Translations under genes and position numbers: made by a program
Shown: piece by piece, positions 17,087 through 37,868 of the stretch
Layout: each line of letters opens with the position of its first letter
How positions within the stretch are numbered: position 1 is the stretch's first letter
Notes under the pieces: generated by a model
The model's database searches: none
Seen by the model: the letters and a program-made list of their open reading frames with translations, nothing else
Told to the model about the DNA's origin: nothing
DNA from: an uncultured Pirellulales bacterium
GTDB lineage: Bacteria > Planctomycetota > Phycisphaerae > Sedimentisphaerales > Anaerobacaceae
Assembly (NCBI GenBank): GCA_964415045.1
Contig: CAYPZL010000001.1
Coordinates: 14,210 to 78,209, forward strand
Reading direction: 5' to 3'
DNA length: 64,000 bases

Positions 17087-17780
17087 AACGATGATCGAGC
17101 TTGTGGACGTGACGAAGGTGTACGGCGCGCCGGGCGAGGCCGGCGGCGTCAGCGTGCTCAAAGGAATCTCCCTGCGCATCGAGAAGGGCCGTTCGATTGT
17201 GATCGTGGGCCCCTCGGGCTGCGGCAAGAGCACTTTGCTCAACATCATCGGCGGGCTGGACCATGCGACCGCCGGCCAGGTGTTGTTCGACGGGCGGAAC
17301 CTCGCCGAGTTGCCTGATGACGAACTGGCGCGGATACGCAACCGCGAGATCGGGTTCGTGTTTCAGTTGCATCATCTGCTGCCCCAGTGCACGGTGCTGG
17401 AGAACGTGCTGGTGCCCACGCTGGCCGGGTCGGACGGGGCGTCGGCGTCCGAGATGCGCGGACGCGCGGAGATGCTGCTGGAGCGGGTGGGGTTGAAAGA
17501 CCGCGTGTCGCACCGGCCGGGCGAGCTTTCCGGGGGGCAGCGCCAGCGGGTGGCGGTGGCGCGGGCGCTGATCAACGAGCCCAAGCTTCTTCTCGCCGAC
17601 GAGCCGACCGGGTCGCTGGATGAGGAAACCGCGCAGAGCATTGCGGATCTTTTGGTGGAGTTGAATCGGGACGTACGCGTGACGTTGATCGTCGTGACCC
17701 ACTCGCAGAAGCTGGCCGAACGCATCGGTGACGTGATGGAACTGCACGGCGGCCGATTGAGTGATAGAGGCGGCGCATGA
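17079..17780 (+). CDS. ABC transporter ATP-binding protein (LolD/MacB type)
   Basis: Walker A 'GPSGCGKST', signature 'LSGGQRQRVAVARAL', Walker B 'LLLADEPTGSLD'. The start is 17079 or 17091; the ORF's upstream extension overlaps the GT gene. Confidence 0.9.
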   Translation: MSETMIELVDVTKVYGAPGEAGGVSVLKGISLRIEKGRSIVIVGPSGCGKSTLLNIIGGLDHATAGQVLFDGRNLAELPDDELARIRNREIGFVFQLHHLLPQCTVLENVLVPTLAGSDGASASEMRGRAEMLLERVGLKDRVSHRPGELSGGQRQRVAVARALINEPKLLLADEPTGSLDEETAQSIADLLVELNRDVRVTLIVVTHSQKLAERIGDVMELHGGRLSDRGGA

Positions 17781-20700
17781 GCATCTGGCGGCTTATTGCC
17801 GAGAGCCTTTGGTTCTACCGGCGTACCAATGTGGCGGTGCTCCTGGCCGTGGTGGTAGCTACCGGTGTGCTGACCGGGGCGCTGGTGGTCGGAGACTCCG
17901 TGTCGTACACGCTCGCCAGGACGCTGGAAGCCCGCCTGGGTGAGGCGGAATTTGCCCTGGTGCCCCAGGGACGGTATTTCCGAGCGGGGCTGGCCGACGA
18001 TCTGGCCGAGCAGCTCGGCAGCAGGGTTGCCCCGGTCTTGCAGGTGCCCGGCATCATCACCAACGACGACGACACGCGACGCGTCAACCGGGTGACGGTG
18101 CTCGGCGTGGACGAGAGGTTCTATGCCGTCGGGCCGGGCGCGAATCCATTTGGCGAGCGGACGGCTGAGGGAGTGGTTTTGAGCGAGTCCGTCGCCGACC
18201 GGCTTGGCGTCACGGCGGGAGGGGAGATCGTTCTGCGAATCGAGAAGCCTGGACTGATGCCGCGCGATGTGCCGCTGGTGTCGGACAAGGATCGCACCGT
18301 TGCGTTCCGGTTGCGCGTGCAGGCGGTCGCGGGGACGTCCGACTTTGGGCGGTTCGATCTGCGCGCGAATCAGACGGCGCCGCTCAACGTCTTCGTGCCC
18401 TTGGCGTGGTTGGGACAGCAGATCGAGCAGGAAGGCCGGGCCAATCTGCTGCTGGCGGCGCATCTGAAGCCGGGTATTACGACCGACGAGGTCAACGCCG
18501 CCGTGCAGGAGTGCTGGCAGTTGGCCGATGCGGGACTCGAGCTTCGACGTCTGGCGGAGCCGAACGTCGTGGAGTTACGCAGCCGGAGGATATTCATTGA
18601 GGAGTCGTTTGGCAGGGAGGCCGCGAGGGCCACTGACGACGCCGAGAGCATTCTGACGTACTTCGTCAATGAAATCCGTCGAGGAGAGAAAGCGACGCCG
18701 TATTCGATGGTGGCCGCCGTCGGCGGTGACGCGGGACTCGGCAGCCTGATCCCGCGCGACATGGGCAGCGACGAGGTCATCATCAACCGGTGGTTGGCAG
18801 AGGACCTCGGTGCGGCGGTCGGCGATTTTGTCGAGATGACCTATTACCTTGTGGGGCCAAAACGCAAGCTCCACGAGGTGCGCAGCCGGTTCAAGGTGAT
18901 CGACGTCGTCGAGCTCGCAGGCCGGGCGAAAGACCCCAATCTCATGCCGGATTTCCCCGGTCTGGCCGATGCGGAGAACTGCCGCGACTGGGAGCCGGGC
19001 GTTCCCATCGATTTGGACAGAATCCGACCGAAGGATGAGCAGTACTGGGACACCTATCGCGGTACGCCAAAGGCCTTTATCACGCTGACAGCCGGGCAGA
19101 CCCGCTGGCGCAATCGCTACGGAAATCTGACGGCCGTGCGGTATCCGTATCGCGAGGGGCTCGCGGAGCAAATCGAGGCGCATCTGCGTGGCGCGGTCGA
19201 TCCGGCCCAGGCCGGTCTCTTCTTCCAGCCGGTCCGGCAGCGGGGCGCCAAGGCCGGTCGCGAGGGTACGGATTTCGGACAGCTTTTTCTCGGCCTGAGC
19301 ATGTTCCTGATCGCCGCGGCCGTCATTCTCACCGGGCTTCTCTTCGTGTTCGGTGTGGAGAGCCGCGCCGACCAGGTAGGCATGCTGCTGGCTGTAGGCT
19401 GGCCTGCGAAGCGTGTCAAGCGTCTGCTCCTGGCCGAGGGTGGTGTCGTGGCGTTGCTCGGGACGCTCGTCGGCATCTGGGCCGGAGTGGTCTATACACG
19501 ACTGATGATCTACGGCCTTTCCACGCTGTGGAGCGGCGCGGTCACCGGGACGGCGATTCGGTTTCATGCGGAATCCGCGACATTAGCGACCGGCGGTCTG
19601 GGCGGCTTGGCGGCGGCGCTGTTCGCCGTCTGGGTGACGCTGCGAAAGCAAGTCTCGCGACCCGCCTGCCAGTTGATGGCCGGCAATCTCGAACCGCGTC
19701 CCGACAGGCGGGGCTCCCGGTTGCGAGGCAAGCTGGGTCTGGTCGTGGCGGTTGTCGCCTTTGCAGGCGTCATCCTGTTTTTGGTCCTCATGGCCGGTGG
19801 TGACAGCCAGGCGGTCGCCGGCGCGTTCTTCGGAGCCGGGGCGCTGCTCTTGCTTGGGGTGTTGGGTCTGGGCCACGCGGTGCTTCGTACGCTGGCAGCG
19901 GGTTGGGACAGACCCATGCTCTCCCTGCGGGGTCTGGGCTTTCGCAGCTCGGCCCGCCGGACCGGACGAAGTCTGGCCATCGTCGGTTTGCTTGCCTGCG
20001 GCGTGTTCATGGTGGTTGCGGTGGGAGCCAACCGCAGAAATGCGCTCAAAGCGCCGCAGAGCAGAAGCTCCGGGACCGGCGGCTTTGCCCTGTACGGGGA
20101 ATCGGCGGTCGCTATTCTGCACGATCTAAACAGCGAGGAGGGACGCAAGGAACTGGGATTGGACCCGCGGGGCCTTGCGGGCGTCGAGGTGGTCCAGTTT
20201 CGTGTGCGCGAGGGGGACGACGCCAGTTGCTTCAATCTGAACCGGGCTCAGCAGCCTCGCCTGCTCGGCGTGGACCCGAAGGAGCTGGCTCGACGAGACG
20301 CGTTTACGTTTACCGAGGTGGTGACGGATGCGGACGGGACGGGTTGGGATCTGCTGGATATGGATCTCGAGACGGGGGTGGTGCCGGCCGTGGGTGATTA
20401 TCCCACCGTTTTCTGGGCGCTGGGCAAGAACATCGGCGATGAGCTGGAGTATAGTGACGAGAAGGGTCGGTCTCTGCGCGTGCGCATCGTGGGAATGGTC
20501 GAAAGCTCCATCCTGCAGGGGAGTTTGGTGATTGCCGAGAACGAATTTACCGCGCGGTTCCCTTCGGTGGACGGGTACGGCGTTTTCCTGATCGACGCGC
20601 CGGCCGAGGCGGTCGAGAGCGTCTCGGACGAACTCTCGTCGGCGCTGAGAGATTACGGACTGGTCCTGACGCCGGCGGCCGAGCGGCAAGCCGCCTTCGG

Positions 20701-21094
20701 CGCCGTCGAGAATACGTATTTGTCCATATTCATGGTTCTCGGCGGTCTGGGCCTGATTCTCGGCAGCATCGGCCTGGGACTGGTGGTGCTGCGCAATATG
20801 CTGGAACGGCGCGGCGAGCTGGCGATGCTGCGGGCGGTCGGATTTGACAAGGTCCGCTTGAAGCGTATGGTATTCTACGAGCACGGAGGGCTGATGCTGG
20901 CCGGGCTGGTGTGCGGGGTCTTCTCCGCCGTCATAGCGGTGATTCCCGCTTTGCAGTCCCCGGGCGGCGCGGTCCCGTATCTGTCGCTGGCCGCGACGGT
21001 GCTGCTGATCGCCGTCAGCGGCGCGCTTTGGGTGTGGATTGCCGCCGGCCTTGCGCTTCGCGGGCACCTGCTGGATGCGTTGCGTGTGGAATAG
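17777..21094 (+). CDS. large FtsX-family (MacB-like, duplicated) ABC transporter permease
   Basis: 1105 aa. 4-nt overlap with the ATPase gene. Two TM bundles, each following a large extracytoplasmic domain. Confidence 0.8.
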   Translation: MSIWRLIAESLWFYRRTNVAVLLAVVVATGVLTGALVVGDSVSYTLARTLEARLGEAEFALVPQGRYFRAGLADDLAEQLGSRVAPVLQVPGIITNDDDTRRVNRVTVLGVDERFYAVGPGANPFGERTAEGVVLSESVADRLGVTAGGEIVLRIEKPGLMPRDVPLVSDKDRTVAFRLRVQAVAGTSDFGRFDLRANQTAPLNVFVPLAWLGQQIEQEGRANLLLAAHLKPGITTDEVNAAVQECWQLADAGLELRRLAEPNVVELRSRRIFIEESFGREAARATDDAESILTYFVNEIRRGEKATPYSMVAAVGGDAGLGSLIPRDMGSDEVIINRWLAEDLGAAVGDFVEMTYYLVGPKRKLHEVRSRFKVIDVVELAGRAKDPNLMPDFPGLADAENCRDWEPGVPIDLDRIRPKDEQYWDTYRGTPKAFITLTAGQTRWRNRYGNLTAVRYPYREGLAEQIEAHLRGAVDPAQAGLFFQPVRQRGAKAGREGTDFGQLFLGLSMFLIAAAVILTGLLFVFGVESRADQVGMLLAVGWPAKRVKRLLLAEGGVVALLGTLVGIWAGVVYTRLMIYGLSTLWSGAVTGTAIRFHAESATLATGGLGGLAAALFAVWVTLRKQVSRPACQLMAGNLEPRPDRRGSRLRGKLGLVVAVVAFAGVILFLVLMAGGDSQAVAGAFFGAGALLLLGVLGLGHAVLRTLAAGWDRPMLSLRGLGFRSSARRTGRSLAIVGLLACGVFMVVAVGANRRNALKAPQSRSSGTGGFALYGESAVAILHDLNSEEGRKELGLDPRGLAGVEVVQFRVREGDDASCFNLNRAQQPRLLGVDPKELARRDAFTFTEVVTDADGTGWDLLDMDLETGVVPAVGDYPTVFWALGKNIGDELEYSDEKGRSLRVRIVGMVESSILQGSLVIAENEFTARFPSVDGYGVFLIDAPAEAVESVSDELSSALRDYGLVLTPAAERQAAFGAVENTYLSIFMVLGGLGLILGSIGLGLVVLRNMLERRGELAMLRAVGFDKVRLKRMVFYEHGGLMLAGLVCGVFSAVIAVIPALQSPGGAVPYLSLAATVLLIAVSGALWVWIAAGLALRGHLLDALRVE

Positions 21095-21119
21095 ATAAGG
21101 ATCGATACAAGGGGTTGCG

Positions 21120-22538
21120 ATGAAAAAACGGGTTGTTGCCGACATCGTACCGATGGCGTTTGCGGTCGCGGGTGTGATCTGCCTGATGTACGTCTGGCTC
21201 AGCGCCGACGCGGCGGTCGATCTCCAGGAGCGGCTGCCGGGCGGCGACAACCGGCCGGCGGGCATTGCCGGCAGTGACGCTCCGGTAAAGCTTACCGGCA
21301 CGCTGGTTGCGCTCGACGGTGTGCCGGCGGATCTGCCCGGCGCCTGGCCCCGCTTCCGGGGGGCCAACTACGACGGCGTCAGTCGGGAAGCTGTGCCGTT
21401 GCAGCGACAATGGCCCGAAGAGGGACCGCCGGAGCTCTGGTCCATCGAGGTGGGGGAAGGGTACGCCGGAGCGGCGGTCTTGAACGGCAAAGTGTATCTG
21501 CTGGACTACGACCGGGCCAACGAAGCGGACGTCGTGCGGTGCCTCTCGCTGGCGGATGGACGTGACATCTGGCAATATTCCTATCCGGTGAAGATCAAGC
21601 GATGGCATGGCATGAGCCGTACCGTACCGGCCGTGACCGACGAGTTCGTTGTCACCCTGGGGCCCAAGGGGCACGTGACCTGCCTGGATGCCAAGACGGG
21701 CGAGTTCAAGTGGATGCTGAATCTCGTGCGGGAGTACAACACGAAACTGCCGCAGTGGTATGCGGCGCAGTGCCCCGTGATCGACGACGGCAAAGCGATC
21801 ATCGCGCCGGCCGGCGACGTGTTGATGATGGCCGTGGATTGTGCCACCGGCGAGATCGTCTGGCAGACGCCCAACCCGGACAGATGGGTGATGACGCATT
21901 CGTCGATCGTACCGATGGAATTCAAGGGACGCCGTTTCTACATCTACTGCGGCGGTTCCACCAACGCCGGCGGCGTCGTCGGCGTTTCGGCCGCCGACGG
22001 CAGTGTGGTGTGGAAGACGGAGGAGTGGAAGGTGCGCACGAACGTCCCGATGCCGGTTCTTGTCGGCGAGGACCGCATCTTCTTCACCGCCGGTTACGGC
22101 CAGTACGACAACGGGTGTATGATGATGCGCCTGGTCGAGTCCGACGGCCGGATCGTGCCCGAAGTGGAGTTTTCTCATCCGACGGATGTTTTCGGCTCCA
22201 TGCAGCATACGCCGGTCTATTACGAAGGCTATATCTACGGCGTCGGCATGGACAAGCAGTTGAGCTGTCTCGACGTGCAGGGCAACGTAGTTTGGACCAG
22301 CACGAGCGAGAACCGGTTCGGCAGCGGCCCGTATATCATTGCCGACGGTCTCATCTACGTTCTCGACGACTCCGGCGTGCTCACGCTCGTCGAGGCCACC
22401 TCCAGCGGGTACGTGCAACTGGACCAGGCGCAGGTGCTGGAGGGAATCGAGTCCTGGGCGCCGATTGCCGTCGCTTCGGGCCGGTTGATCGTGCGGGACC
22501 TGACGCGCATGGCGTGTCTGGACGTGGCTCAGCGGTAG
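21120..22538 (+). CDS. membrane-anchored PQQ-like beta-propeller repeat protein
   Basis: TM 'IVPMAFAVAGVICLMYVWL', 'AWPRFRGANYDG' motif, propeller blade repeats. Confidence 0.8.
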   Translation: MKKRVVADIVPMAFAVAGVICLMYVWLSADAAVDLQERLPGGDNRPAGIAGSDAPVKLTGTLVALDGVPADLPGAWPRFRGANYDGVSREAVPLQRQWPEEGPPELWSIEVGEGYAGAAVLNGKVYLLDYDRANEADVVRCLSLADGRDIWQYSYPVKIKRWHGMSRTVPAVTDEFVVTLGPKGHVTCLDAKTGEFKWMLNLVREYNTKLPQWYAAQCPVIDDGKAIIAPAGDVLMMAVDCATGEIVWQTPNPDRWVMTHSSIVPMEFKGRRFYIYCGGSTNAGGVVGVSAADGSVVWKTEEWKVRTNVPMPVLVGEDRIFFTAGYGQYDNGCMMMRLVESDGRIVPEVEFSHPTDVFGSMQHTPVYYEGYIYGVGMDKQLSCLDVQGNVVWTSTSENRFGSGPYIIADGLIYVLDDSGVLTLVEATSSGYVQLDQAQVLEGIESWAPIAVASGRLIVRDLTRMACLDVAQR

Positions 22539-22545
22539 AGCGGCG

Positions 22546-22574
22546 TTGATGAAGGCGCCTGGGCCTGCTATACT
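22546..22574 (+). promoter_or_regulatory. possible internal promoter TTGATG-17nt-TATACT ahead of the NHL gene
   Basis: Hexamers at 22546-22551 and 22569-22574, inside the only sizeable gap (81 nt) of the gene string. Confidence 0.35.
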
Positions 22575-22619
22575 GCCGGTTCTGCAAGTTGTTTCCAGAT
22601 AAAGGAATAGAGCGTAATC

Positions 22620-23663
22620 GTGACCAGAGAAGCCGGGGAAATAGACGTCAAGCTGTTTCTGGTGGTCCTTGTCGTCGTGGTGGCGGCGGTGGGTGTTGTG
22701 GCCGTCCTTCAGCTCGATACGACAGGCCGGTCGGGTAGCGGCCTGAGCGACGCGTTCAGCTATGATCTGACCGAGCTGACGCGGGTGGACCCGAACCTCA
22801 TTCTGTACGAAGAGGTGGGGCAGCCGCTGAATACGGGCTTTGTCCTGTCCCGCGCCATTGCCCTGGATTCCAATGGACGGATTTTTGTCACGGGAGACAA
22901 AGCGATCCGCATATTCAGCCGGCCGGGCAGCCTGCAGCGGATCATCGATATCGCCGGCGAGCCGCGCTGCCTGACGGTGGCCGATGACGGCAAGGTGTAC
23001 GTGGGTGTCGAAGACCACGTCGAGGTCTGGGACAGCAGTGGCCGGCGCCTCGCCGCCTGGCAGCCTCTCGGCGAAGAGGCGGTCCTGACCAGTATTGCGA
23101 AGTACAAAGACAGCGTATTTGTCGCCGATGCGGGTCACCGCGTCGTGCTCCATTATGATTTGGCGGGCAACCTGATCGACTTCATCGGCGAGAAGGACCC
23201 GGACAGGAACATTCCCGGTTTCGTCGTTCCGGGGCCTCACATGGACGTGGCTGTCTCTCGTGACGGTCTGCTGCGCGTCGTCAACCCGGGGCGGCACCGC
23301 ATCGAGGCATACACGCTTGAGGGCGACCTGGAGTTCTGGTGGGGCGAGCCCTCGGCCAAGATCGAAGGCTTCTGCGGATGCTGCAATCCCGTGAACTTCG
23401 CGCTGTTGCCCAACCAGGGTTTTGTCACCAGCGAGAAGGGGCTGGTGAGAGTGAAGGTGTACAACAGCGACGGCGGGTTTGTCGGAGTGGTGGCCGGCCA
23501 CGAGCAGTTGACCGATGGCGTGCAGGCCAAGATCTGCGAGACGCCGGAAGAATGTCAGGGAGCCGGTCTGGACGTGGCCGCCGACGCCGACGGTCGCATC
23601 TACATCCTGGACCCGCCGGAGAATGTGATCAGAATCTTCGCAAGGAAAGAAGCACGCCCATGA
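22620..23663 (+). CDS. membrane-anchored NHL-repeat beta-propeller protein
   Basis: GTG start. TM 'LFLVVLVVVVAAVGVVAVL'. NHL-like repeats ('RIFVTGDKAIRIF', 'KVYVGVEDHVEVW', 'RIYILDPPENVIRIF'). Unusual 'GFCGCCNPVNF' cluster. Confidence 0.7.
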   Translation: MTREAGEIDVKLFLVVLVVVVAAVGVVAVLQLDTTGRSGSGLSDAFSYDLTELTRVDPNLILYEEVGQPLNTGFVLSRAIALDSNGRIFVTGDKAIRIFSRPGSLQRIIDIAGEPRCLTVADDGKVYVGVEDHVEVWDSSGRRLAAWQPLGEEAVLTSIAKYKDSVFVADAGHRVVLHYDLAGNLIDFIGEKDPDRNIPGFVVPGPHMDVAVSRDGLLRVVNPGRHRIEAYTLEGDLEFWWGEPSAKIEGFCGCCNPVNFALLPNQGFVTSEKGLVRVKVYNSDGGFVGVVAGHEQLTDGVQAKICETPEECQGAGLDVAADADGRIYILDPPENVIRIFARKEARP

Positions 23664-23905
23664 GCGAATCTGCAAGGAATCGACATACGCGCAGGCGTTT
23701 TTTTGCCGGGGCGCTGAGAAACGCATCGCTGGCACTGCTGGGGGCCGGCAGCGGGGCCGCGGTCGTCAAGCGACGCCGCCTCTTGCGGGAAGGCAAGTGC
23801 CTCAACCAGGGAATTTGCTCGCAGTGCGAGGTCTTCGCGGAATGTGGTTTACCGCGGGCCCTTTCGGTTCGGCGCGCGATGAAGAGGAGTCACGATGACG
23901 CGTAA
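23660..23905 (+). CDS. small Tat-signal protein with Cx5Cx2Cx5C motif
   Basis: ATG overlaps the upstream TGA. Twin-arginine 'TRRRFFAGAL', then 'CLNQGICSQCEVFAEC'. 81 aa. Confidence 0.5.
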   Translation: MSESARNRHTRRRFFAGALRNASLALLGAGSGAAVVKRRRLLREGKCLNQGICSQCEVFAECGLPRALSVRRAMKRSHDDA

Positions 23906-24458
23906 CAGAGACGTGATGAGCAGACGCAAATTCTTGCGTGAGGGCCTCTGGGGTGCCTGCCTGGCCGGGTTGGGTGGCGCCTCCGGCCTGAGCGTGGCGC
24001 GGAACAACCGTGACAACATGGTCTGGCAGATCGATCCGCATCTGTGTATTCAGTGCGGCAACTGCGCGACGTATTGCGTGCTGGAGGAATCGGCGGTCAA
24101 GTGCGTCCACTCGTATGCCAAGTGCGGATATTGCGATCTTTGTACGGCGTACTTAGTGCCGGAGCCGACGGCGCTGGATACCGGCGCGGAGAACGAGCTG
24201 TGCCCGACGGGCGCGATCAAGCGGACCTTCGTGGAGGATCCCTACTACGAGTACACCATCGATGAGTCGCTGTGCAACGGTTGCGGCAAATGCGTCAAGG
24301 GATGCAACGCGTTCGGCAATGGATCGCTCTATCTCCAGGTCCGTCACGATCGGTGCCTGAACTGCAATGAGTGTGCGATCGCGGTTGCCTGTCCATCGCA
24401 GGCGTTCAAGCGGGTTCCTGCGGATCAGCCCTACCTGCTGAAAGAAGTGGTTCATTGA
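23895..24458 (+). CDS. Tat-exported 4Fe-4S polyferredoxin (NapG/NosG-like)
   Basis: 'SRRKFLREGL' Tat motif. Cluster motifs 'CIQCGNCATYC', 'CGYCDLC', 'CNGCGKCVKGC' and 'CLNCNECAIAVACP'. Confidence 0.8.
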   Translation: MTRNRDVMSRRKFLREGLWGACLAGLGGASGLSVARNNRDNMVWQIDPHLCIQCGNCATYCVLEESAVKCVHSYAKCGYCDLCTAYLVPEPTALDTGAENELCPTGAIKRTFVEDPYYEYTIDESLCNGCGKCVKGCNAFGNGSLYLQVRHDRCLNCNECAIAVACPSQAFKRVPADQPYLLKEVVH

Positions 24459-25762
24459 TGATGGTGCGTTTGGCTCGTCTCACGATCTTCGTTGCCGTAT
24501 TGCTGGCGCCGTCTCTGGCGGTTTGTGAAGAGTATCGTTTTCCTCCGCCCGATTTCGAGAGCGGCTACGAGCTTCCCGAAACGGAGGTTCCGCCGGCCCG
24601 CGACAGCGTATATGAGTACGTCGATACGGCGGTGTTTTTGCTGGCCCTGGTCCTGGCCTCGTACCTGATCCACAAGAAACGCAGCCGTCGCGCTATTTAC
24701 GCGCTGGTGATCTTCTCCCTGTTGTACTTTGGTTTCTGGCGGCGCGGGTGCATCTGCGCGATCGGGGCGATTCAAAACGTCACGCTGACGATTTTCGACA
24801 GCAGCTACGCGATCCCGATCACGGCGGCGATCTTCTTCGTCCTCCCCCTGGCCTTTACGCTGTTTTTCGGCCGGACGTTTTGCGGAGCCGTTTGTCCGCT
24901 GGGGATGATCCAGGACGTAGTGCTCGTACGCCCGGTGAAGGTTCCGCTCTGGCTGGAGAGCGCTCTGCGTTTGCTAGCCTACGCGTATCTCGGTGCAGCG
25001 GTGCTCTTTGCCGCCACCGGCAGCGCGTTTCTCATCTGTCGCTACGATCCGTTCGTCGCGTTCTTTCGGCTCAGCGGCAACTGGAATCTCCTGGTCTTCG
25101 GGACCTCTCTGCTGCTGATTGGACTCTTTGTCGGGCGGCCGTACTGCCGGTTTCTATGTCCTTACGGCGTGCTGCTGCGGCAGTTCTCGCGTCTCTCGAA
25201 ATGGCGCGTCACGATCACGCCGACCGAGTGCGTCAAGTGCCGTTTGTGTGAGGACGCCTGCCCCTTCGGCGCCATTCACGAGCCGACGGAAGACTGGCCG
25301 GCAGGGGAGTACCGAATCGCCAAGAAGAGGCTCGCGTTGTTTCTGGTCTTGCTGCCGGTTCTGATCGCCGGCGGTGCGTGGGGCGGTCATAAACTCAAGG
25401 CGCCTTTGGCGCGGATGCATCCGACCGTGCGGACCGCCGAGCGGGTCTACCTGGAAGAGATGGGGCAGATCGAGGGCACCGACGACGTCAGCGACGCGTT
25501 TCGCGCGACCGGCCGGGCCAGCAGCGATCTCTATCGCGAGGCCTCGATGCTGCGCGACCGGTTCGCTCTGGGCGGCGCGCTGCTCGGCGGGTTCCTGGGT
25601 TTCGTGGTGGGAGGCAAGCTGATCGCGCTGTCGGTACGCCGCCGACGGAGCGACTACGAGGCGGACCCGGCCGGCTGCCTGGCCTGCGGACGCTGCTACC
25701 GCTACTGTCCGAAGGAGCACGAACGGTTGAAACTGAAAAAGGAGCGGATCCCCGCACACTGA
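24458..25762 (+). CDS. NapH/NosH/MauN-like integral-membrane polyferredoxin
   Basis: ATG overlaps the upstream TGA. Membrane 'FCGAVCPLG' and 'YCRFLCPYG' motifs, plus 'CVKCRLCEDACP' and 'CLACGRCYRYCP'. Confidence 0.8.
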   Translation: MMVRLARLTIFVAVLLAPSLAVCEEYRFPPPDFESGYELPETEVPPARDSVYEYVDTAVFLLALVLASYLIHKKRSRRAIYALVIFSLLYFGFWRRGCICAIGAIQNVTLTIFDSSYAIPITAAIFFVLPLAFTLFFGRTFCGAVCPLGMIQDVVLVRPVKVPLWLESALRLLAYAYLGAAVLFAATGSAFLICRYDPFVAFFRLSGNWNLLVFGTSLLLIGLFVGRPYCRFLCPYGVLLRQFSRLSKWRVTITPTECVKCRLCEDACPFGAIHEPTEDWPAGEYRIAKKRLALFLVLLPVLIAGGAWGGHKLKAPLARMHPTVRTAERVYLEEMGQIEGTDDVSDAFRATGRASSDLYREASMLRDRFALGGALLGGFLGFVVGGKLIALSVRRRRSDYEADPAGCLACGRCYRYCPKEHERLKLKKERIPAH

Positions 25763-27504
25763 TGACGGAAACCATGGAACAGATTCCTGAACGCGATAAA
25801 GGGCTCGGCTACCAGACGGCGCGAAGGACGGCTATCGTTGGAGCCGTTTTTGGGTGCATTTTCGCTGCTCTTCTGGTTGCCAACCTCATCGGCAGCGCCG
25901 TCCTCGGGCCGGCGCGTGAGCTCAGGCTGGATGCCATGAAGCTCCGCGTCCAGAAAGAGCCGGACAACAAAGAGCTGCTGGCTGAAATTCGCCGGTTGGA
26001 CCTGAAAATACGTCGCGACCGGCTCTGGCGCTGGGAGTTTGACCGCAAGGCTGCCTACATGCTGTTAGGCAGCGTCGTCGTTTTCCTGGTTGGTGCGCAG
26101 GTGGCGCGTCTGCTGACGAGGGAGCCACCGCGACCGGGGCCCGTTCGCGACGTGGGTGAGGTCCAGATCGAGTCCGCCATGCATGCGCGCTGGGCCGTGG
26201 CGGGGGCCCTGATTTTGTTAGCGGGCGGCGCCTGGCTGTTCTACAGCAGGGGGGCGGTGGATTTCGCTCGCGCGCAGGATCAAGGGCCCGCCTACGCGTC
26301 GATGGCGGAAATGCGCGAGCAATGGCCCCGTTTCCGCGGCCCGGGCGGTGCGGGAATCAGCATGTATACCAACATACCCACGCGCTGGGACGGCAAGACG
26401 GGCGAGGGAATTCTCTGGAAAGCGGAGGTCCCGCTGCCGGGACGAAACTCCCCGGTCGTCTGGAAGGATCGAATTTTCCTCACGGGGGCGGACCCGAACG
26501 CCCGCGAAGTGTACTGCTTCGACGCCGCCGACGGCCGGCTGCTCTGGCGCGGCGACGTTCCTACGGTGCCTTTGCCGGAGGATGCGGAGCTGGACCTGAT
26601 GGAGGACACGGGCTACGCCGCTTCGACGGCGGCCACCGACGGCCGGCGCGTGTACGCGATCTTTGCCACCGGCGACGTGGCCGCGTTCGATTTCAACGGC
26701 CGGCGGCTCTGGCATAAGAACCTGGGCCTGCCGGACAACGTCTACGGTTTCGCCGCGTCTCTGGAGACCTACGAGAACCTCGTTCTCATTCAATACGATC
26801 AGAGTGACGGCACGGACGGCAAATCGCGCCTCTATGCGCTGGACGGCTTGTCGGGGCGCACCGTGTGGGATGTCGGGCGGGCACTGCCGAATTCCTGGAC
26901 GTCGCCGGTCGTGGTGGAAGTGGAGGGCCGGTACCAGCTTGTGACGCTCTCCGATCCGTGCGCCGTCGCTTACGATCCCTCCGACGGGCGCGAGCTGTGG
27001 CGGGCCGAATGCGCCACGGGCGACGTCGCCGCCTCGCCCATCTATGCGGGCGGCCTGATCCTCGTGATCGAACCTTACGCGCATTTAGCTGCGATCAAGC
27101 CGGACGGCCAGGGCGATGTCACCGAAACCCACATCGCCTGGCGGATGGAGGAGGGCGGGCCCGACATCTGCTCCCCGGTGGCCAACGACCAGTACGTGTA
27201 TCTGATGGAGAGCGAAGGGTTGTTGATCTGCTGCAACGTGCAGACCGGGGAGAAACTCTACGAGCACGACCTGAGAGAGAGTTTCACGGCGTCTCCCAGC
27301 ATGGTGGCGGACAAGCTCTACCTGCTGGATATGAAGGGCGTGATGCACATTGCCGAGGTCGGGCCGGAATACAAGGAAATCACCACGTGCGCTCTGGGCG
27401 AGGAGTGTTTTGCCTCGCCGGCGTTCGCGAATGGGCGGATCTACATCCGGGGCGACAAGAACCTGTACTGCATTGGCGAAGCCCCGCAGAGCAGCCCGCG
27501 TTGA
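25762..27504 (+). CDS. polytopic-anchored PQQ-like beta-propeller repeat protein
   Basis: 1-nt overlap with the upstream stop. About three N-terminal TM segments, then 'QWPRFRGPGGAG' and blade repeats. Confidence 0.8.
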   Translation: MTETMEQIPERDKGLGYQTARRTAIVGAVFGCIFAALLVANLIGSAVLGPARELRLDAMKLRVQKEPDNKELLAEIRRLDLKIRRDRLWRWEFDRKAAYMLLGSVVVFLVGAQVARLLTREPPRPGPVRDVGEVQIESAMHARWAVAGALILLAGGAWLFYSRGAVDFARAQDQGPAYASMAEMREQWPRFRGPGGAGISMYTNIPTRWDGKTGEGILWKAEVPLPGRNSPVVWKDRIFLTGADPNAREVYCFDAADGRLLWRGDVPTVPLPEDAELDLMEDTGYAASTAATDGRRVYAIFATGDVAAFDFNGRRLWHKNLGLPDNVYGFAASLETYENLVLIQYDQSDGTDGKSRLYALDGLSGRTVWDVGRALPNSWTSPVVVEVEGRYQLVTLSDPCAVAYDPSDGRELWRAECATGDVAASPIYAGGLILVIEPYAHLAAIKPDGQGDVTETHIAWRMEEGGPDICSPVANDQYVYLMESEGLLICCNVQTGEKLYEHDLRESFTASPSMVADKLYLLDMKGVMHIAEVGPEYKEITTCALGEECFASPAFANGRIYIRGDKNLYCIGEAPQSSPR

Positions 27505-27523
27505 CAGGGTGAACTGAGCTTCT

Positions 27524-29875
27524 ATGGAAGAGTTGGATTTGACATTCGTTGATGAGCTGGTCGAGAGAGTCGGCACCGGCAAGGACGAAGTGCTGGAGAT
27601 TCTCCAGGCCGTCCAGGGGCACTACGGCTACTTGCCGAAGGAGGCGCTGCAGCGCGTTTGCGACCGGACGGACATCACGCCGGCTACGATTACGGGGGTT
27701 TCGACGTTCTACGACCAGTTTCGGCATCGTCCTGCCGGCCGGCACACGATTCGCGTTTGCATCGGCACCGCCTGTCACGTCAAGGGCGGCCAGCAGGTCT
27801 ATGACGCGTTCAAACGCTTCCTCAAGATTCCTGACGACGACGACACCGACGCCGATAAGCTGTTCACCGTGGAGAAGGTGGCCTGTATCGGCTGCTGCAT
27901 GCTCGCGCCGGCCATCCAGATCGACGACATCGTCTACGGACATTTGAACGACCATCGCGTCCCGGTGGTTTTGAAGGATTTTCTCGAGCAGGAGAAGGCG
28001 ACGGCGCGCAAGGGACGCAAGGAGCGGCATCGGCCGCGCCGCGACGACTTCGGCGAGATTCGCATCTGTCTGGATTCGAGCTGTCAGGCCAGCGGCAGCG
28101 GGCATGTGTACGAGAGCCTCAAGAAGGCGGTGGCCCGGACGCGAGCGCGGGCGGTTGTCAAAAGCGTGGCGTGTTCGGGCATGTCCTATCTGACGCCGCT
28201 GGTCGAGGTCATTTTGCCCGGGGGCCACTCGTTTCGGTACGGCAACGTCGAGCCGCAGGACGCCGGGGCGATTGTGTTGCGTCATTTCAAGCCGCGCTGG
28301 CCGGGACGGCGCGCCGCCTCGGCCGTCTCGAACGTGCTCGACCGGATACTGACCGACGAGGCGTGGGGCGCCGTGACACGCTACTCCCTGAACGTTCGCG
28401 ATACGCACGTGGCCGGCTTCGTGGACCCGCAACAACATATCGCCACCGAGCACGCCGGCCACACCGATCCGGTGGACTTAGACGAATATCTGCGTCACGA
28501 CGGATTCAAGGCGCTGGAGAAATGCCTCAAGCAATGGAGTCCCGACGAGATCGCCTCGGAGATCGAGCGCAGCGGCCTTCGCGGCCGGGGCGGCGCGGGC
28601 TTCCCCACGCACCTCAAATGGAAGGCCGTACAGAGCCAGACTTCCGAGAAGAAGTTCGTTGTTTGCAACGGCGACGAGGGCGACCCCGGCGCGTTCATGG
28701 ACCGGATGCTGATGGAGTCCTACCCGTACCGCATCATCGAGGGCGTAGCCATTGCCGCCCGTTGCGTCGGCGCTGCCGAAGGATACCTCTATATTCGGGC
28801 CGAATACCCGCTGGCCATCAAGCGCATGACCGAGGCGATTCGCAAATGCGAGGAGCGCGGGCTTTTAGGCGAGAGTATTCTGGACAGCGATTTCTCTTTG
28901 CGGTTGAAGATTGTGGCCGGGGCGGGCGCGTTTGTCTGCGGCGAGGAAACCGCGCTGATGGCGAGCATCGAGGGCCGCCGGGGCATGCCGAAGCTGCGGC
29001 CGCCGTATCCGGCCCACAAGGGACTGTGGGGCATGCCCACGCTGATCAACAACGTGGAGACGTACTCGGTCGTGCCCTGGATCGTACGCAACGGCGCCGA
29101 GGCGTTTGCGAGCATTGGGACTGAGAAGAGCAAGGGGACCAAGGTCTTCGCCCTGGCCGGCAAGGTGGCCCGGGGCGGACTGATCGAAGTGCCCATGGGG
29201 ATCACGATCAGACAGATCATCGAGGAGATCGGGGGCGGCATCGCCGGGGGGCTGCGGCTCAAGGCCGTGCAGATCGGGGGACCCTCCGGGGGCTGCATCC
29301 CCACCGCGCTGGACAGCCACTCGGTGGACTACGAAGCGCTGGCCGAAGTCGGCGCCATGATGGGCTCGGGCGGCATGGTGGCGCTGGATGAAACGGACTG
29401 CATGGTGGACATCGCGCGCTACTTCCTCGAGTTTACGCAGAACCAATCGTGTGGCAAGTGCACGTTCTGCCGCATCGGAACGCGGCGCATGCTGGATATC
29501 CTGGAGCGGTTGTGCGCCGGGGAGGGCAAGCCGGCGGACCTGGACGAGCTGGAACACCTGGCGCGGATCGTCAAGCAGGGCAGTCTCTGCGGCTTGGGCA
29601 AGACGGCCCCGAACCCGGTCCTGTCGACAATGAAGTACTTCCGCGACGAGTACGAAGCCCACGTTCAAGGGCGTTGTCCGGCCGGCAAGTGCAAGGCCCT
29701 TATCACGTATAAGATCACCGACGATTGTATCGGCTGCACCGTGTGCGCCCAGCATTGCCCGGTCGATGCGATTGAGATGAAGCCGTACGAGCAGCACGAA
29801 ATAGACGTTGACAAGTGCATTCGATGCGGGACCTGCCAGAGCGTCTGTCCCGCCGATGCCGTTCGAGTTGAGTAG
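27524..29875 (+). CDS. NuoE-like/NuoF-like fusion flavo-FeS protein (HndA+HndC / HydC+HydB / StnA+StnB type)
   Basis: NuoE-type 2Fe-2S region 'CIGTACHVKG...CIGCC', FMN/NADH region 'GLRGRGGAGFPT', 'SCGKCTFCR', and C-terminal 2x 'CxxCxxCxxxCP'. Confidence 0.85.
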   Translation: MEELDLTFVDELVERVGTGKDEVLEILQAVQGHYGYLPKEALQRVCDRTDITPATITGVSTFYDQFRHRPAGRHTIRVCIGTACHVKGGQQVYDAFKRFLKIPDDDDTDADKLFTVEKVACIGCCMLAPAIQIDDIVYGHLNDHRVPVVLKDFLEQEKATARKGRKERHRPRRDDFGEIRICLDSSCQASGSGHVYESLKKAVARTRARAVVKSVACSGMSYLTPLVEVILPGGHSFRYGNVEPQDAGAIVLRHFKPRWPGRRAASAVSNVLDRILTDEAWGAVTRYSLNVRDTHVAGFVDPQQHIATEHAGHTDPVDLDEYLRHDGFKALEKCLKQWSPDEIASEIERSGLRGRGGAGFPTHLKWKAVQSQTSEKKFVVCNGDEGDPGAFMDRMLMESYPYRIIEGVAIAARCVGAAEGYLYIRAEYPLAIKRMTEAIRKCEERGLLGESILDSDFSLRLKIVAGAGAFVCGEETALMASIEGRRGMPKLRPPYPAHKGLWGMPTLINNVETYSVVPWIVRNGAEAFASIGTEKSKGTKVFALAGKVARGGLIEVPMGITIRQIIEEIGGGIAGGLRLKAVQIGGPSGGCIPTALDSHSVDYEALAEVGAMMGSGGMVALDETDCMVDIARYFLEFTQNQSCGKCTFCRIGTRRMLDILERLCAGEGKPADLDELEHLARIVKQGSLCGLGKTAPNPVLSTMKYFRDEYEAHVQGRCPAGKCKALITYKITDDCIGCTVCAQHCPVDAIEMKPYEQHEIDVDKCIRCGTCQSVCPADAVRVE

Positions 29876-29877
29876 GT

Positions 29878-31461
29878 ATGCCGAAACTAAGCATAGACGG
29901 TCGCCCGGTGGAGGTCGAGGCCGGCGCGACGATTCTCGACGCCGCCGAAAAGCTGGGGATCGAGATTCCGACGATGTGCTATCTGCGCGGGCACGAAGCG
30001 ACCACCAGTTGCATGGTGTGCGTGGTCAAGGTCCTCGGCGCCAAAGGGTTGCTGCCAGCCTGCGGCACGCCGGCGCGCGACGGGATGCAGGTCGAGAACG
30101 ATTGTGAAGAGGTCCGCGACGCGCGGCGGTCGGCGCTGGAGTTGCTGCTCGGCGACCACGTGGGCGACTGCGTGGGACCGTGCCGGATGGCCTGTCCGGC
30201 CCACATGGACATCCCCCTGATGATCCGGCAGATCGAAGCGGGGCAGTTGAAAGATGCGATCGCGACGGTGAAGCGCGACATCGCCTTGCCGGCGGTGCTG
30301 GGACGGATTTGCCCGGCGCCGTGCGAGAAAGTGTGCCGGCGGGCACAGCACGACGAGGCGGTCTCGATCTGCCTGTTGAAGCGATTCGTCGCCGGTGTGG
30401 ACCTGCAATCGGACGAGACCTATCGACCCGCCTGCGCCGCGGAACGAGGCAAGCGCGTGGCCATTATCGGCGCGGGCCCGGCCGGTCTGGCGGCGGCCTA
30501 TTATCTGCGCCGCGACGGAATTGCCTGTACGGTCATTGATGACCACGAGCAACCCGGCGGAATGCTGCGGTACGGTGTTTCGCAGGAGGAGCTGCCCCGC
30601 AACGTCCTGGACGCCGAAATCGCGTGCATCGAGAACCTCGGCGTCGAGTTTCGGTTCCGCACGCGGGTCGGCACGGGCGTGTCCATGGACGAGATTCGCA
30701 AACAGTATGACGCCGTGTTCATCGGCACCGGTGCGCTGGAACCGGGAGATGCGGATCACCTGGGCGTCCCGGCGGCGGCCGACAGGATCAAGGTGGACAG
30801 CCGGACGTATGCGACCGATGTCCCCGGCGTCTTTGCCGGCGGCGACGTGGTGCGCAAGCGCCGTCTGACCGTGCGCGCCGTGGCCGACGGGAAAGAAGCC
30901 GCTGTAGCGATCGGCCAGTATCTCACTGGCGCGGAGATGACTGGAGCAGCCAGGCCGTTCAACAGCAGGATGGGCAGGCTCGCGGACGGCGAGATGGAGA
31001 CGTTTCTGCAATCCGCCGTCTCCACGCCGCGACAGAAGCCTTCCGGGCCGACCGGGGGATTCATCGAGTCCGAGGCGCGGGCCGAGTCCTCTCGGTGCCT
31101 GCACTGCGATTGCCGCAAGGGCGAGACGTGCCGGCTGCGACGCTACGCACAGGCCTACGGGGCGCGGCAGACGAGATACAAGGCGCAGCGACGTTCCTTT
31201 GCTCAGCAGACGCAGCACCCCGAGATCATCTACGAGCCGGGCAAGTGCATCAACTGCGGCATCTGTATCGAGATCGCCTCGGCGTTCGGGGAAGAGCTTG
31301 GGCTCACGTTCATCGGCCGGGGCTTCGACGTACGCGTGGCGGTGCCGTTCGATGCCTCCCTGGCCGAGGGCCTGCGGATCGCCGCGGCCCAATGCGTGCA
31401 GGCCTGTCCCACCGGTGCTCTCGCGTTTCGGGATGAGTCACGGACACAGGAAGGTTCGTGA
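29878..31461 (+). CDS. 2Fe-2S ferredoxin domain fused to a GltD/NfnB-like FAD/NAD(P)-binding oxidoreductase with extra C-terminal Fe-S motifs
   Basis: 'MPKLSIDGRPVEVEAGATILDAA...CY' (NuoG/HydA-type N-terminus), 'CPAPCEKVC', dinucleotide fold 'VAIIGAGPAGLAAAYYL', and C-terminal 'CINCGICIE...CPTGA'. Confidence 0.8.
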   Translation: MPKLSIDGRPVEVEAGATILDAAEKLGIEIPTMCYLRGHEATTSCMVCVVKVLGAKGLLPACGTPARDGMQVENDCEEVRDARRSALELLLGDHVGDCVGPCRMACPAHMDIPLMIRQIEAGQLKDAIATVKRDIALPAVLGRICPAPCEKVCRRAQHDEAVSICLLKRFVAGVDLQSDETYRPACAAERGKRVAIIGAGPAGLAAAYYLRRDGIACTVIDDHEQPGGMLRYGVSQEELPRNVLDAEIACIENLGVEFRFRTRVGTGVSMDEIRKQYDAVFIGTGALEPGDADHLGVPAAADRIKVDSRTYATDVPGVFAGGDVVRKRRLTVRAVADGKEAAVAIGQYLTGAEMTGAARPFNSRMGRLADGEMETFLQSAVSTPRQKPSGPTGGFIESEARAESSRCLHCDCRKGETCRLRRYAQAYGARQTRYKAQRRSFAQQTQHPEIIYEPGKCINCGICIEIASAFGEELGLTFIGRGFDVRVAVPFDASLAEGLRIAAAQCVQACPTGALAFRDESRTQEGS

Positions 31462-32227: not shown

Positions 32228-32255
32228 TTGTCGGCGACCCGGCCTATGGTATACT
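32228..32255 (+). promoter_or_regulatory. possible promoter TTGTCG-16nt-TATACT for the 32385 gene
   Basis: Hexamers at 32228-32233 and 32250-32255. A bulged 7-bp hairpin follows at 32262-32283. Confidence 0.3.
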
Positions 32256-32384
32256 GTACGAACTCCGGCTGAGCACCGGGAGTATACAGGAAACCGGCGC
32301 GTTTGAACAGGGCTGACGGGATGATGGTCTGCAGGCCGGCGCGCGGGACAATCGTTTTATTCGTTTCGGGAAGGGTATTCGGTT

Positions 32385-33668: not shown

Positions 33669-33835
33669 GGCCCGCGAGGCGATGGCACGAATGGAGGCGG
33701 GCAAGCAGTTCGGAAAAATCGCCCTGCAGGTGTCGCCATCGGGCTGAGCGTGGAAATTCGCAGAACATTCCGGCTCCGCGTGCATATAGGGTACAAAGGT
33801 TGGAATCGGCGCTGCCTTCTGAAAGGGGATTTGCT

Positions 33836-34411: not shown

Positions 34412-34511
34412 GGCCGGTCGGTCGGTGTGACTGCCACGCCCGGTGGCCTGCACGGGGACCTGATTGGCAGCGGGTCGGGCGGGCAGACGAGATTGGAAGG
34501 AACGAATCCGG

Positions 34512-35813: not shown

Positions 35814-35948
35814 CCGGTTCCGGCCTCTTGGGGGCGCATTGAGCGCGAGCACCACTTCCATCAGGGACAAAAGTGCCGAGTTTTGCGAACCTAAATCCTA
35901 TAGAAATAGTATAGCTTTTCACGTGAACGAAAAGTCGTGGAGGCTGTT

Positions 35949-37857: not shown

Positions 37858-37868
37858 CGCGACACGCT

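Follow-up and report, generated by a model that had tools for sequence, protein, structure and literature searches.

What does a NapG/NapH-like electron-transfer module serve when it lies among membrane-anchored beta-propellers and no terminal reductase can be recognized beside it? The question is raised by positions 21120-27504 of a 64,000-nucleotide stretch of DNA from an uncultured Pirellulales bacterium (contig CAYPZL010000001.1, positions 14,210 to 78,209 of the forward strand; hereafter the window). There, a reading of the sequence alone, referred to below as the original prediction, had seen a block of six genes that might pass electrons between the quinone pool and beta-propeller proteins. 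Our analysis indicates that this block is only the middle part of a longer operon, which also encodes a flavoenzyme pair of the Nfn-Bfu/Stn type, and that the locus specifies a real, conserved, uncharacterized periplasm-directed redox system, more probably fed with NAD(P)H by this pair than by quinol alone. The eight genes that form its core are as follows.

21120-22538, + strand: PQQ1, a propeller similar to pyrroloquinoline quinone (PQQ) enzymes, 472 residues
22620-23663, + strand: NHL, an NHL-repeat propeller, 347 residues
23660-23905, + strand: Tat81, a cysteine-containing peptide with a twin-arginine translocation (Tat) signal, 81 residues
23895-24458, + strand: Fdx, a Tat-signal polyferredoxin, 187 residues
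24458-25762, + strand: the NapH-like polytopic membrane protein, 434 residues
25762-27504, + strand: PQQ2, a PQQ-like propeller, 580 residues
27524-29875, + strand: BfuCB, a BfuC-BfuB fusion (NuoE plus NuoF-like), 783 residues
29878-31461, + strand: BfuA of the Nfn type ([2Fe-2S] plus GltD-like), 527 residues

All six open reading frames (ORFs) of 21120-27504 are present on the + strand with the boundaries, gene contents and start/stop overlaps that had been described: ORF calls and DNA junctions agree on ATGA as the overlap at 23660, on 11 shared nucleotides at 23895-23905 and on TGATG at both 24458 and 25762. The limits of the unit did not hold, however, and the downstream Bfu pair, which follows after gaps of 19 nt (before BfuC-BfuB) and 2 nt (before BfuA), had been overlooked. 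Upstream, an ATGA overlap joins the PQQ0 propeller gene to a GT4 glycosyltransferase gene, whose stop is overlapped by the start of an ATP-binding cassette (ABC) ATPase gene at 17079. The operon spans at least 14553-31461, where 12 genes follow one another in the same direction, separated by overlaps or by gaps that nowhere exceed 81 nt, in the order PQQ0, GT4, ABC ATPase, FtsX/MacB permease, PQQ1, NHL, Tat81, Fdx, NapH-like, PQQ2, BfuCB and BfuA. Promoter and terminator scans gave no clear operon boundaries within the cluster, and an Rfam scan of the whole window returned no known RNA regulator and no riboswitch that would hint at a ligand. Transmembrane (TM)-like segments, as well as cysteine and twin-arginine motifs, were called by hydropathy and a motif script. 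The claim that no heme, molybdopterin or cupredoxin terminal reductase can be recognized was confirmed by Pfam scans of the cluster proteins, which contained no molybdopterin, cupredoxin or NosZ-type domain at E<=0.01, and by the motif search, which found no CxxCH in 16 proteins spanning 9695-33785; likewise, no heme, molybdenum or copper enzyme occurs among the genes annotated at 5.9-37.5 kb of the window.

We used the NHL protein, the best signature of the cluster, to follow the locus through other genomes. Its homologs at 60-99% identity are plentiful in metagenome-assembled genomes (MAGs) of Sedimentisphaerales and Phycisphaerae. At E<=1e-30, an exhaustive search of cluster representatives collected 930 clusters (50% identity); when one genome was scanned per species, at least 569 hits or loci came up in these species-representative genomes. 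The survey of order and co-occurrence drew on the best 80 of these at least 569 genome loci, and only loci long enough to be informative enter the counts. The 12-gene order from PQQ0 to BfuA recurs in the best 80 loci, with protein identities of ~45-85%. NHL is accompanied by PQQ1 in 60/65 informative loci, by Fdx in 69/72, by the NapH-like gene in 63/67 and by PQQ2 in 58/63, while the Bfu pair stays with the block in 55/58 (BfuCB) and 44/48 (BfuA) and Tat81 appears as a separate gene in 63/74. For the upstream genes the counts are 48/57 (FtsX permease), 49/57 (ABC ATPase), 40/52 (GT4) and 33/45 (PQQ0). Overall, the eight-gene core (PQQ1, NHL, Tat81, Fdx, NapH-like, PQQ2, BfuCB and BfuA) is found in ~90-95% of sufficiently long related loci. 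Since the same order is seen in dozens of loci whose proteins show just 33-80% identity to those of the window, the arrangement goes far beyond chance.

The distant members of the family, recovered by profile search at NHL identities of 33-39%, extend this picture. Three loci (L081, L085 and L088) keep the core. Two more (L082 and L084), with NHL proteins resembling one that NCBI labels Thermoguttaceae, keep PQQ1-NHL-Fdx-NapH-PQQ2-BfuCB-BfuA and lack the ABC system. In L087 the core is also retained, with the Bfu pair lying between PQQ2 and a PQQ0-like gene plus GT4, and hence inside the cluster. Finally, L089, whose NHL protein is named Armatimonadota by NCBI, is arranged as two divergent operons, one strand carrying Tat81-Fdx-NapH-PQQ2-BfuCB-BfuA and the other PQQ1-NHL with two more PQQ-like genes (in a further locus, L032, the cluster is interrupted by masked sequence). 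Thus the block is kept as a unit across Phycisphaerae, Planctomycetia (Thermoguttaceae) and Armatimonadota, and the neighborhood check proposed with the original prediction comes out in its favor. That the same eight genes are kept despite rearrangement and in different phyla is what argues most strongly for joint function, and because of it we count the Bfu pair as part of the system.

The two Bfu proteins are well defined at the sequence level. BfuC-BfuB, which has domains for an FMN/NADH site, a [2Fe-2S] and a [4Fe-4S] cluster, matches 2Fe-2S_thioredx (156 bits), Complex1_51K (162 bits) and NADH_4Fe-4S (119 bits), and its C-terminus holds a 2x[4Fe-4S] Fer4 dicluster (Fer4_21/Fer4_7). The closest structures in the PDB are 9bov_B (8.7e-211), NfnB 9n5u_B (4.2e-206), 8oh5_B (4.6e-201) and HydB 7q4v_B (9.5e-196); residues 179-782 align to residues 7-594 of NfnB 9n5u_B, BfuC being fused at the N-terminus. 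BfuA matches Fer2_4 (60 bits), Fer4_20 (63 bits), Pyr_redox_2 (55 bits), NAD_binding_8 and Fer4_Nqo3, in a layout of N-terminal [2Fe-2S]/HydA-like Fe-S, GltD/NfnB-like FAD-NAD(P)H and C-terminal ferredoxin-like domains, with PDB matches to 9bov_A (1.8e-105), 8oh5_C (6.6e-101) and NfnA 9n5u_A (1.8e-91). By sequence-level definition, the pair belongs to the Nfn-Bfu/Stn family, whose Bfu members have been characterized as NAD(H)/NADP(H)/ferredoxin enzymes (PMC9304861, PMC10482914). Because this pair travels with the block, a cytoplasmic NAD(P)H/ferredoxin link appears better supported than a pure quinol dehydrogenase.

On the periplasmic side, Fdx carries an SRRKFL twin-arginine motif and matches several Fer4 families in Pfam. 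Seventeen of its cysteines, in four CxxCxxC-type groups, are conserved in >=95% of 78 sequences, pointing to about four [4Fe-4S] sites, and the combination of a twin-arginine signal with four [4Fe-4S] motifs is the architecture of NapG and MauM. The small Tat81, which like Fdx shows an RRxF twin-arginine motif, contains a hydrophobic segment, a basic KRRRL stretch and a C-x5-C-x2-C-x5-C motif; R11, R12 and C47/C53/C56/C62 are >=95% conserved in 70 sequences. In two loci (L022 and L044) it is fused to the N-terminus of an Fdx that has no signal of its own, and a third (L074) has a longer Fdx (212 aa) and no separate Tat81. Because of the fusions, we read Tat81 as a probable signal-anchor that would hold a fifth Fe-S cluster site of the periplasmic ferredoxin. 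The 81-residue protein had been described as a Tat-signal cysteine peptide; signal and cysteines are both there, but it is better seen as an extra Fe-S site than as a free peptide. Its Fe-S-type cysteine spacing, together with the fusion to ferredoxin in the same two loci, led us to reject a role as a MauA-like or QhpC-like cofactor-bearing small subunit.

The membrane protein between Fdx and PQQ2 matches PF12801 (Fer4_5) with 52.4 bits, against a cut-off of 22. It displays CxxxCP motifs at C142/C146 and C230/C234 and CxxCxxCxxxCP motifs at C258-268 and C407-417, the second of these ferredoxin motifs being displaced behind two extra TM-like segments; an N-terminal RFPPPDF, a GCICxIGAIQN motif and C194 are also conserved. 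Fifteen cysteines are invariant across nine sequences (one of them from the contig with the Armatimonadota-named NHL and two from contigs with Thermoguttaceae-type NHL), and seven of the fifteen lie in or near the membrane part, for which a sequence search against the PDB found no solved homolog. Profile searches, proposed earlier for each protein, returned PF12801, Fer4, PQQ_2 and NHL domains; curated membership of NapG, NapH or NosR was not supported. The NapH/MauN models TIGR02163 and PRK09477 score 41.1 and 38.6 bits versus thresholds of 213.05 and 234, with MauN also far under threshold, the NosR model scores 51.3 versus 1000 bits, and the NapG models PRK09476 and TIGR00397 give Fdx 20.4 versus 269 and 16.6 versus 178.85 bits. 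The predicted likeness to NapG/NapH therefore holds for the architecture (a Tat polyferredoxin plus a polytopic protein with CxxxCP and 4Fe-4S motifs) and fails at the curated thresholds; by sequence, the two proteins appear related to NapG and NapH at the superfamily level only (PF12801, "NapH-like"). Partner genes of the NapAB/NapC or methylamine dehydrogenase (MADH) kind are absent from the genes annotated at 5.9-37.5 kb and from the called genes of the related loci inspected. Pfam found no FMN_bind domain in the NapH-like or scanned cluster proteins, and no ApbE match in any window ORF submitted.

Where, then, could the electrons go? The NHL protein satisfies the NHL-repeat family (PF01436, 24.7 bits; cut-off 20), has one N-terminal TM-like segment and is modeled by AlphaFold2 (AF2) as a six-bladed propeller with a predicted local distance difference test (pLDDT) score of 80.6; Foldseek aligns the model to the NHL domains of TRIM2, Thin and Brat (E=1e-17, TM-score normalized to target 0.75-0.78). 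An analysis of flank charges by the positive-inside rule places both this propeller and that of PQQ1 outside the cytoplasm. Within an F-x-G-C-C-N-P motif, C254, C255, N256 and P257 are the same in every one of 151 sequences (the window protein and 150 cluster representatives, reaching down to 38% identity), and no histidine is universal across the family. The active sites of propellers usually lie at the mouth of the central channel. In the AF2 model the GCCNP motif sits directly before the first strand (residues 257-262) of its four-strand repeat, a location that we infer to be such a mouth. NHL would accordingly be the candidate catalytic subunit, with the invariant Cys-Cys pair as its candidate redox center. 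In the family at large, C117, C252, C254 and C255 are unlikely to form an Fe-S site: many distant members have S, F or A in place of C252, the first cysteine of the window's "CGCC", and C117 lacks family-wide conservation. The gene is duplicated in tandem in one Planctomycetota MAG (L052, 9959-12061).

PQQ1 is a core member and always lies immediately upstream of NHL. It matches PQQ_2 with 91 bits and PF01011 at the borderline (27.1 versus 26.7 bits), and its single N-terminal TM-like segment, with flank charges of +1.9 on the N side and -1.75 on the C side, indicates an N-in/C-out topology. The AF2 model is a PQQ-like propeller (pLDDT 78) whose top Foldseek matches are BamB (TM-score normalized to target ~0.75) and tetrathionate hydrolase, the latter at a sequence identity of just 12-16%. 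Invariant polar motifs are K160-R161-x-H163-G-M-S-R167, Q217-C218-P219 and M258-x-H260-x-S262, which include its few invariant histidines, H163 and H260. In an 816-residue protein from JGI and ENA metagenomes (P0247/P0276), PQQ1 (52% identity) and NHL (45% identity) are naturally fused, which supports the view that the two form a functional pair. PQQ2 (PQQ_2, 97 bits) has TM-like segments at 25-43, 100-118 and 144-162 and is translationally coupled to the NapH-like gene through the TGATG overlap.

Three identities were tried for the PQQ-like propellers and rejected. As PQQ dehydrogenases (TIGR03075), PQQ1, PQQ2 and PQQ0 score 33.1, 24.0 and 85.8 bits versus 480, the level that would imply the PQQ/Ca site; as BamB (TIGR03300), the scores are 48.4, 58.4 and 193.4 versus 285.2 bits, and the N-terminal sequences contain TM anchors and no lipobox; and neither Pfam nor NCBIfam yields a NosZ or cupredoxin match. 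One or more of the propellers had been proposed to exchange electrons with the quinone pool by way of the module. For the PQQ-like ones, with a BamB scaffold and tetrathionate hydrolase as nearest folds, a catalytic role of this kind was not supported, and the pattern of conservation makes NHL with its invariant Cys-Cys pair the better catalytic candidate.

The layout from Bfu to propellers suggests a single electron path from the cytoplasmic pyridine-nucleotide and ferredoxin pools to the periplasm, the genes together encoding what would be one membrane-spanning redox machine. We regard as plausible, though somewhat short of probable, an outward model in which electrons run from Bfu through the NapH-like protein and the five-cluster periplasmic ferredoxin to the propellers. 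Cytoplasmic BfuC-BfuB and the short, NADP(H)-binding BfuA would exchange electrons with NADH and NADPH; instead of or besides soluble ferredoxin, the NapH-like protein would receive the low-potential electrons at its cytoplasmic [4Fe-4S] clusters. These clusters would stand in for the ferredoxin substrate of Bfu, and the low-potential electrons could be driven outward as NADPH is oxidized and NAD+ reduced in a coupled reaction. The NapH-like protein would relay them across the bilayer via its membrane part, with the seven invariant cysteines including the two CxxxCP motifs, to the Tat-exported ferredoxin formed by Fdx and Tat81, with roughly five clusters. From there they would reach the anchored, periplasm-facing propellers, among which NHL would be the likeliest redox-active acceptor; its Cys254-Cys255 pair, working as a dithiol/disulfide or as a metal or cluster ligand, would be the most plausible terminal redox center. 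PQQ1, PQQ2 and the extra PQQ-like propellers would be partner, substrate-handling or scaffold subunits, and the MacB/FtsX ABC pair, GT4 and PQQ0 lineage-specific accessories, possibly for assembly or substrate delivery. What the data establish is which genes are there, their motifs and families, and how far they are conserved and co-occur; we infer the physical coupling of Bfu to the NapH-like protein, the outward direction and the catalytic role of the Cys-Cys pair. The direction is favored because characterized NapH-type systems supply periplasmic reductases, and because no periplasmic cofactor able to oxidize a low-potential donor is visible. Consistent with this, NapH-like proteins have been described as modular units of transmembrane electron transfer in the service of extracytosolic reductases (PMC8238504), and the systems characterized by experiment (Nap, Nos and Pce) send electrons outward to reductases (PMC8238504, and in part general knowledge). 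A more specific reading, possible but doubtful, is that this would be the first case of a flavin-based bifurcating Bfu enzyme whose low-potential branch is exported through the cytoplasmic membrane, via a NapH-like protein and a five-cluster Tat ferredoxin, to a new enzyme family of NHL propellers in which the vicinal Cys-Cys pair would be catalytic. If so, a periplasmic reductase or a respiration-like electron sink would lie hidden in some Armatimonadota and in Planctomycetota that are seen as strictly fermentative; a disulfide or organosulfur compound, polysulfide or a metalloid would be candidate substrates.

Several observations weigh against an outward path of this kind. Canonical NapH is held to oxidize quinol. 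The characterized Nfn-Bfu/Stn enzymes are soluble and complete in themselves, working with soluble ferredoxin, and the adjacency of Bfu could reflect co-regulation only. Sequence does not tell which way the electrons run, and outward flow, if combined with proton uptake in the periplasm, would draw on membrane potential instead of conserving it. The Cys-Cys loop of NHL is poorly modeled (pLDDT <50 at residues 247-252), and the fold searches supplied no mechanism or enzymatic precedent, returning only generic NHL domains (TRIM2, Brat and PAL) for NHL, and BamB and tetrathionate hydrolase for PQQ1. In addition, P0247 possesses, besides its N-terminal anchor, a hydrophobic segment between its two propellers, which would put the PQQ1 and NHL parts on opposite sides of the membrane. 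Exceptions to the conserved cluster also exist, although they are few: one locus ends after NHL (L077) and another is a lone NHL gene (L076).

The alternative that survives best, which we nevertheless consider unlikely, stays close to the original prediction: Fdx and the NapH-like protein would form a menaquinol dehydrogenase of the NapGH/NosGH type that feeds propeller enzymes, and Bfu would be a co-transcribed housekeeping transhydrogenase. The NapG/NapH-type architecture (a polyferredoxin of ~16 cysteines; two CxxxCP and two ferredoxin motifs) and the PF12801 match fit this account, as does the fact that characterized Nfn-Bfu enzymes require no membrane partner; a NADHdh (NuoH-type) gene near the Thermoguttaceae loci is moreover consistent with a quinone-using chain in that host. 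The curated NapG, NapH and NosR thresholds are nevertheless missed 5- to 20-fold in bit score, Sedimentisphaerales are described as strictly fermentative (PMC11266412), and the persistence of Bfu would be hard to explain for an unrelated enzyme: it stays across two phyla, inside the cluster in L087 and on the strand of Fdx, NapH and PQQ2 in L089.

Electrons might also flow inward, the periplasmic propeller or propellers oxidizing a low-potential donor and passing electrons through Fdx and the NapH-like protein to Bfu, which would reduce NAD+ or NADP+ while membrane potential is built. Bfu enzymes are reversible, NapH-like proteins have been found beside periplasmic oxidases such as ExaA (PMC8238504), and the invariant polar motifs of PQQ1 are of the active-site kind; with proton release outside, such a route would conserve energy and might suit energy-limited fermenters. 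We judge it distinctly unlikely, given that the NapH-type systems characterized by experiment (Nap, Nos and Pce) run the other way, that no NiFe, molybdenum, heme or flavin domain can be recognized in the periplasmic proteins, and that PQQ1 and PQQ2 reach just 24-33 of the 480 bits of the PQQ-dehydrogenase model TIGR03075.

The outward path that we favor can be set beside several known systems. As in NapGH and MauM/MauN, a four-cluster Tat ferredoxin has as its partner a polytopic protein bearing two CxxxCP and two ferredoxin motifs, and the genes are adjacent and translationally coupled. Unlike in those systems, there is no NapA/B/C or MADH, the curated models are widely missed, an extra N-terminal periplasmic motif, GCIC and two added TM-like segments before the second ferredoxin motif are present, and both the Tat81 Fe-S peptide and the Bfu flavoenzyme are additional. 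With clusters that combine NosR/NosGH, NosDFY and NosZ the locus shares a NapH-like Fe-S protein, an ABC machine acting in the periplasm and a beta-propeller, and in NCBIfam the NapH-like protein is matched best by the C-terminal half of NosR (51 of 1000 bits). However, no FMN_bind, NosZ propeller, cupredoxin, NosD or NosL was found, and the ABC system differs from NosDFY in being of the FtsX/MacB type and dispensable in many lineages. Nfn-Bfu/StnABC (8oh5, 9n5u and 9bov) has a homologous BfuB/BfuC core and GltD-like BfuA (E 1e-91 to 1e-211) with all cofactor domains; here, in contrast, BfuC is fused to BfuB, BfuA is 527 aa long versus 963-1178 aa and without the pterin-like C-terminal domain of StnC, and the pair is embedded in a membrane/periplasmic gene cluster.

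The flavinylated NapH-like systems of Meheust et al. 2021 (PMC8238504) offer a parallel in that a modular NapH-like conduit serves varied extracytosolic redox enzymes, which are mostly of unknown function (PMC8238504). The present system differs in having an Fe-S ferredoxin relay, with no FMN_bind or ApbE match in the ORFs scanned, and in its attached NAD(P)H module, which those authors inferred for some MsrQ-like but not for NapH-like systems. Finally, BamB and tetrathionate hydrolase (both cofactor-less, eight-bladed PQQ-like propellers) are the best folds for PQQ1, which falls in the PQQ_2 family with them, but PQQ1 departs from BamB in its family-specific invariant polar motifs and in having a TM anchor instead of a lipoprotein signal. 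The open-access papers and bioRxiv preprints searched contained no description or experimental assignment of the cluster; no mention of NapH-like or PQQ-like partners was found in the Bfu survey paper, and the text of a genomic survey of Phycisphaerae (PMC11266412) does not refer to ferredoxin, Nfn, PQQ, NHL or menaquinone. The earlier suggestion of an uncharacterized periplasmic redox system thus stands as regards its conservation, its orientation toward the periplasm and its novelty in the literature searched, with the amendment that the system is larger and NapGH-like at the superfamily level only.

Such a system would matter for several reasons. Anaerobic Phycisphaerae (Sedimentisphaerales and relatives) are common polysaccharide degraders of anoxic sediments and digesters, and cultured Sedimentisphaerales exist. 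An operon linking their NAD(P)H and ferredoxin pools to the periplasm would mean either an unrecognized route of electron disposal or uptake outside the cytoplasm or an envelope need for low-potential reductant. The cytoplasmic Fe-S clusters of NapH-type proteins, long a puzzle, would gain a concrete partner, the Bfu family would reach into a membrane and periplasmic context, and a new, very large family of NHL propellers (the 930 clusters described above) with an invariant vicinal cysteine pair would be defined.

The remaining genes of the operon, and two that follow it, are the following.

14553-15785, + strand: PQQ0, a PQQ_2/BamB-like beta-propeller with an N-terminal hydrophobic anchor; accessory
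15782-17086, + strand: GT4 glycosyltransferase, cytoplasmic; accessory
17079-17780, + strand: ABC ATPase, LolD/MacB-like
17777-21094, + strand: FtsX/MacB permease, 1105 residues, duplicated
31471-32184, - strand: FMN_red/WrbA-like flavoprotein with a Tat signal; possible accessory
32385-33668, + strand: PQQ3, a PQQ_2 propeller; possible accessory

PQQ0 matches PQQ_2 with 210 bits and Beta-prop_ACSF4 with 226 bits and has a TM-like segment at residues 7-25. GT4 carries the Pfam domains Glycos_transf_1 and Glyco_trans_4_4, with sub-threshold NCBIfam matches only. In L087 a PQQ0-like gene and GT4 follow BfuA (GltD), so that membership is kept while the order is altered. The ATPase (ABC_tran, 134 bits) is closest to LolD (TIGR02211, 267.7 versus a cut-off of 307.75 bits), and the permease, with ~10 TM-like segments and large periplasmic domains, is of the MacB/FtsX mechanotransmitter type (FtsX 59.7 versus 25.5 bits; MacB_PCD 38.6 versus 27 bits) and has no sequence match in the PDB. 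It is absent from the Thermoguttaceae and Armatimonadota loci as well as from L074 and L087; a 1001-residue protein upstream of PQQ1 in Thermoguttaceae was considered as its counterpart and rejected as unrelated.

These genes bear on a last alternative, a role in envelope biogenesis or maintenance in which BamB-like scaffolds would work with a MacB/FtsX ABC system and GT4 that build or export an envelope glycoconjugate, while the Fe-S/Bfu chain would keep periplasmic thiols (the NHL Cys-Cys pair or clients) reduced as an iron-sulfur analog of DsbD/CcdA: BamB is indeed the best fold match of PQQ1, GT4 and PQQ0 travel with the cluster despite the change of order, MacB-type permeases generally act on periplasmic or envelope substrates and a vicinal cysteine pair is plausible as a thiol/disulfide center, but we find the idea quite improbable, since the ABC/FtsX and GT4 genes are missing from many loci that hold the eight-gene core, the BamB equivalog gives 48-58 versus 285 bits to proteins with TM anchors and not lipoprotein signals, and about five periplasmic [4Fe-4S] clusters with a bifurcating flavoenzyme would be elaborate for a housekeeping thiol reductase.

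Downstream of BfuA, the FMN_red/WrbA-like protein (FMN_red, 92 bits, plus a TAT_signal match) has orthologs that occupy this position in 11 loci as well as in L090, and is conserved only in close relatives; as a periplasmic flavoprotein it could be another electron partner. PQQ3 (PQQ_2, 90 bits) has orthologs at 60-77% identity after GltD in L008, L010, L053, L041, L011, L051, L039, L022, L009, L037 and L030, and a further one in L090. A 513-residue ORF at 32244-33785 (- strand), almost wholly opposite PQQ3 and with no family match, is probably not a gene but a shadow ORF.

Directly upstream of the cluster lies a gene for pyruvate:ferredoxin oxidoreductase (PFOR; 9695-13327, + strand, 1210 aa). 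L090 and nine of the genome loci (L017, L010, L008, L031, L027, L060, L054, L004 and L003) are arranged likewise, and therefore a ferredoxin-reducing enzyme adjoins the system in the closest lineages. Between PFOR and PQQ0, at 13329-14168 (+ strand), is a gene for a 279-residue protein with a lipoprotein-like N-terminus (LTGC) and no family match, conserved at ~45-48% identity in eight loci. In L081, genes at 1-4077 (- strand) for a HydABC-type (Bfu) [FeFe] hydrogenase stand divergently and directly upstream of the ABC-FtsX-PQQ1-NHL cluster. In L085, the interval 2105-8553 ahead of PQQ1-NHL encodes a Fer4 protein, a radical SAM enzyme, a 40-aa ORF, a DUF116/polyprenyl synthase fusion and two squalene-hopene-cyclase/prenyltransferase-like genes, which could hint at a terpenoid link or be a coincidence.

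Beyond PQQ3, the window continues with a 191-residue thioredoxin-fold protein (AhpC/TSA/Redoxin; 33836-34411, + strand) that has a CNHC motif and no visible signal peptide. It is followed at 34464-41669 (+ strand) by genes for an outer-membrane factor, a CusB/HlyD-like adaptor with heavy-metal-binding domains and a resistance-nodulation-division (RND) pump, which together make up a Cus-like metal efflux system. Far upstream, positions 2432-4186 (+ strand) encode a subtilase with a C-terminal type I dockerin domain.

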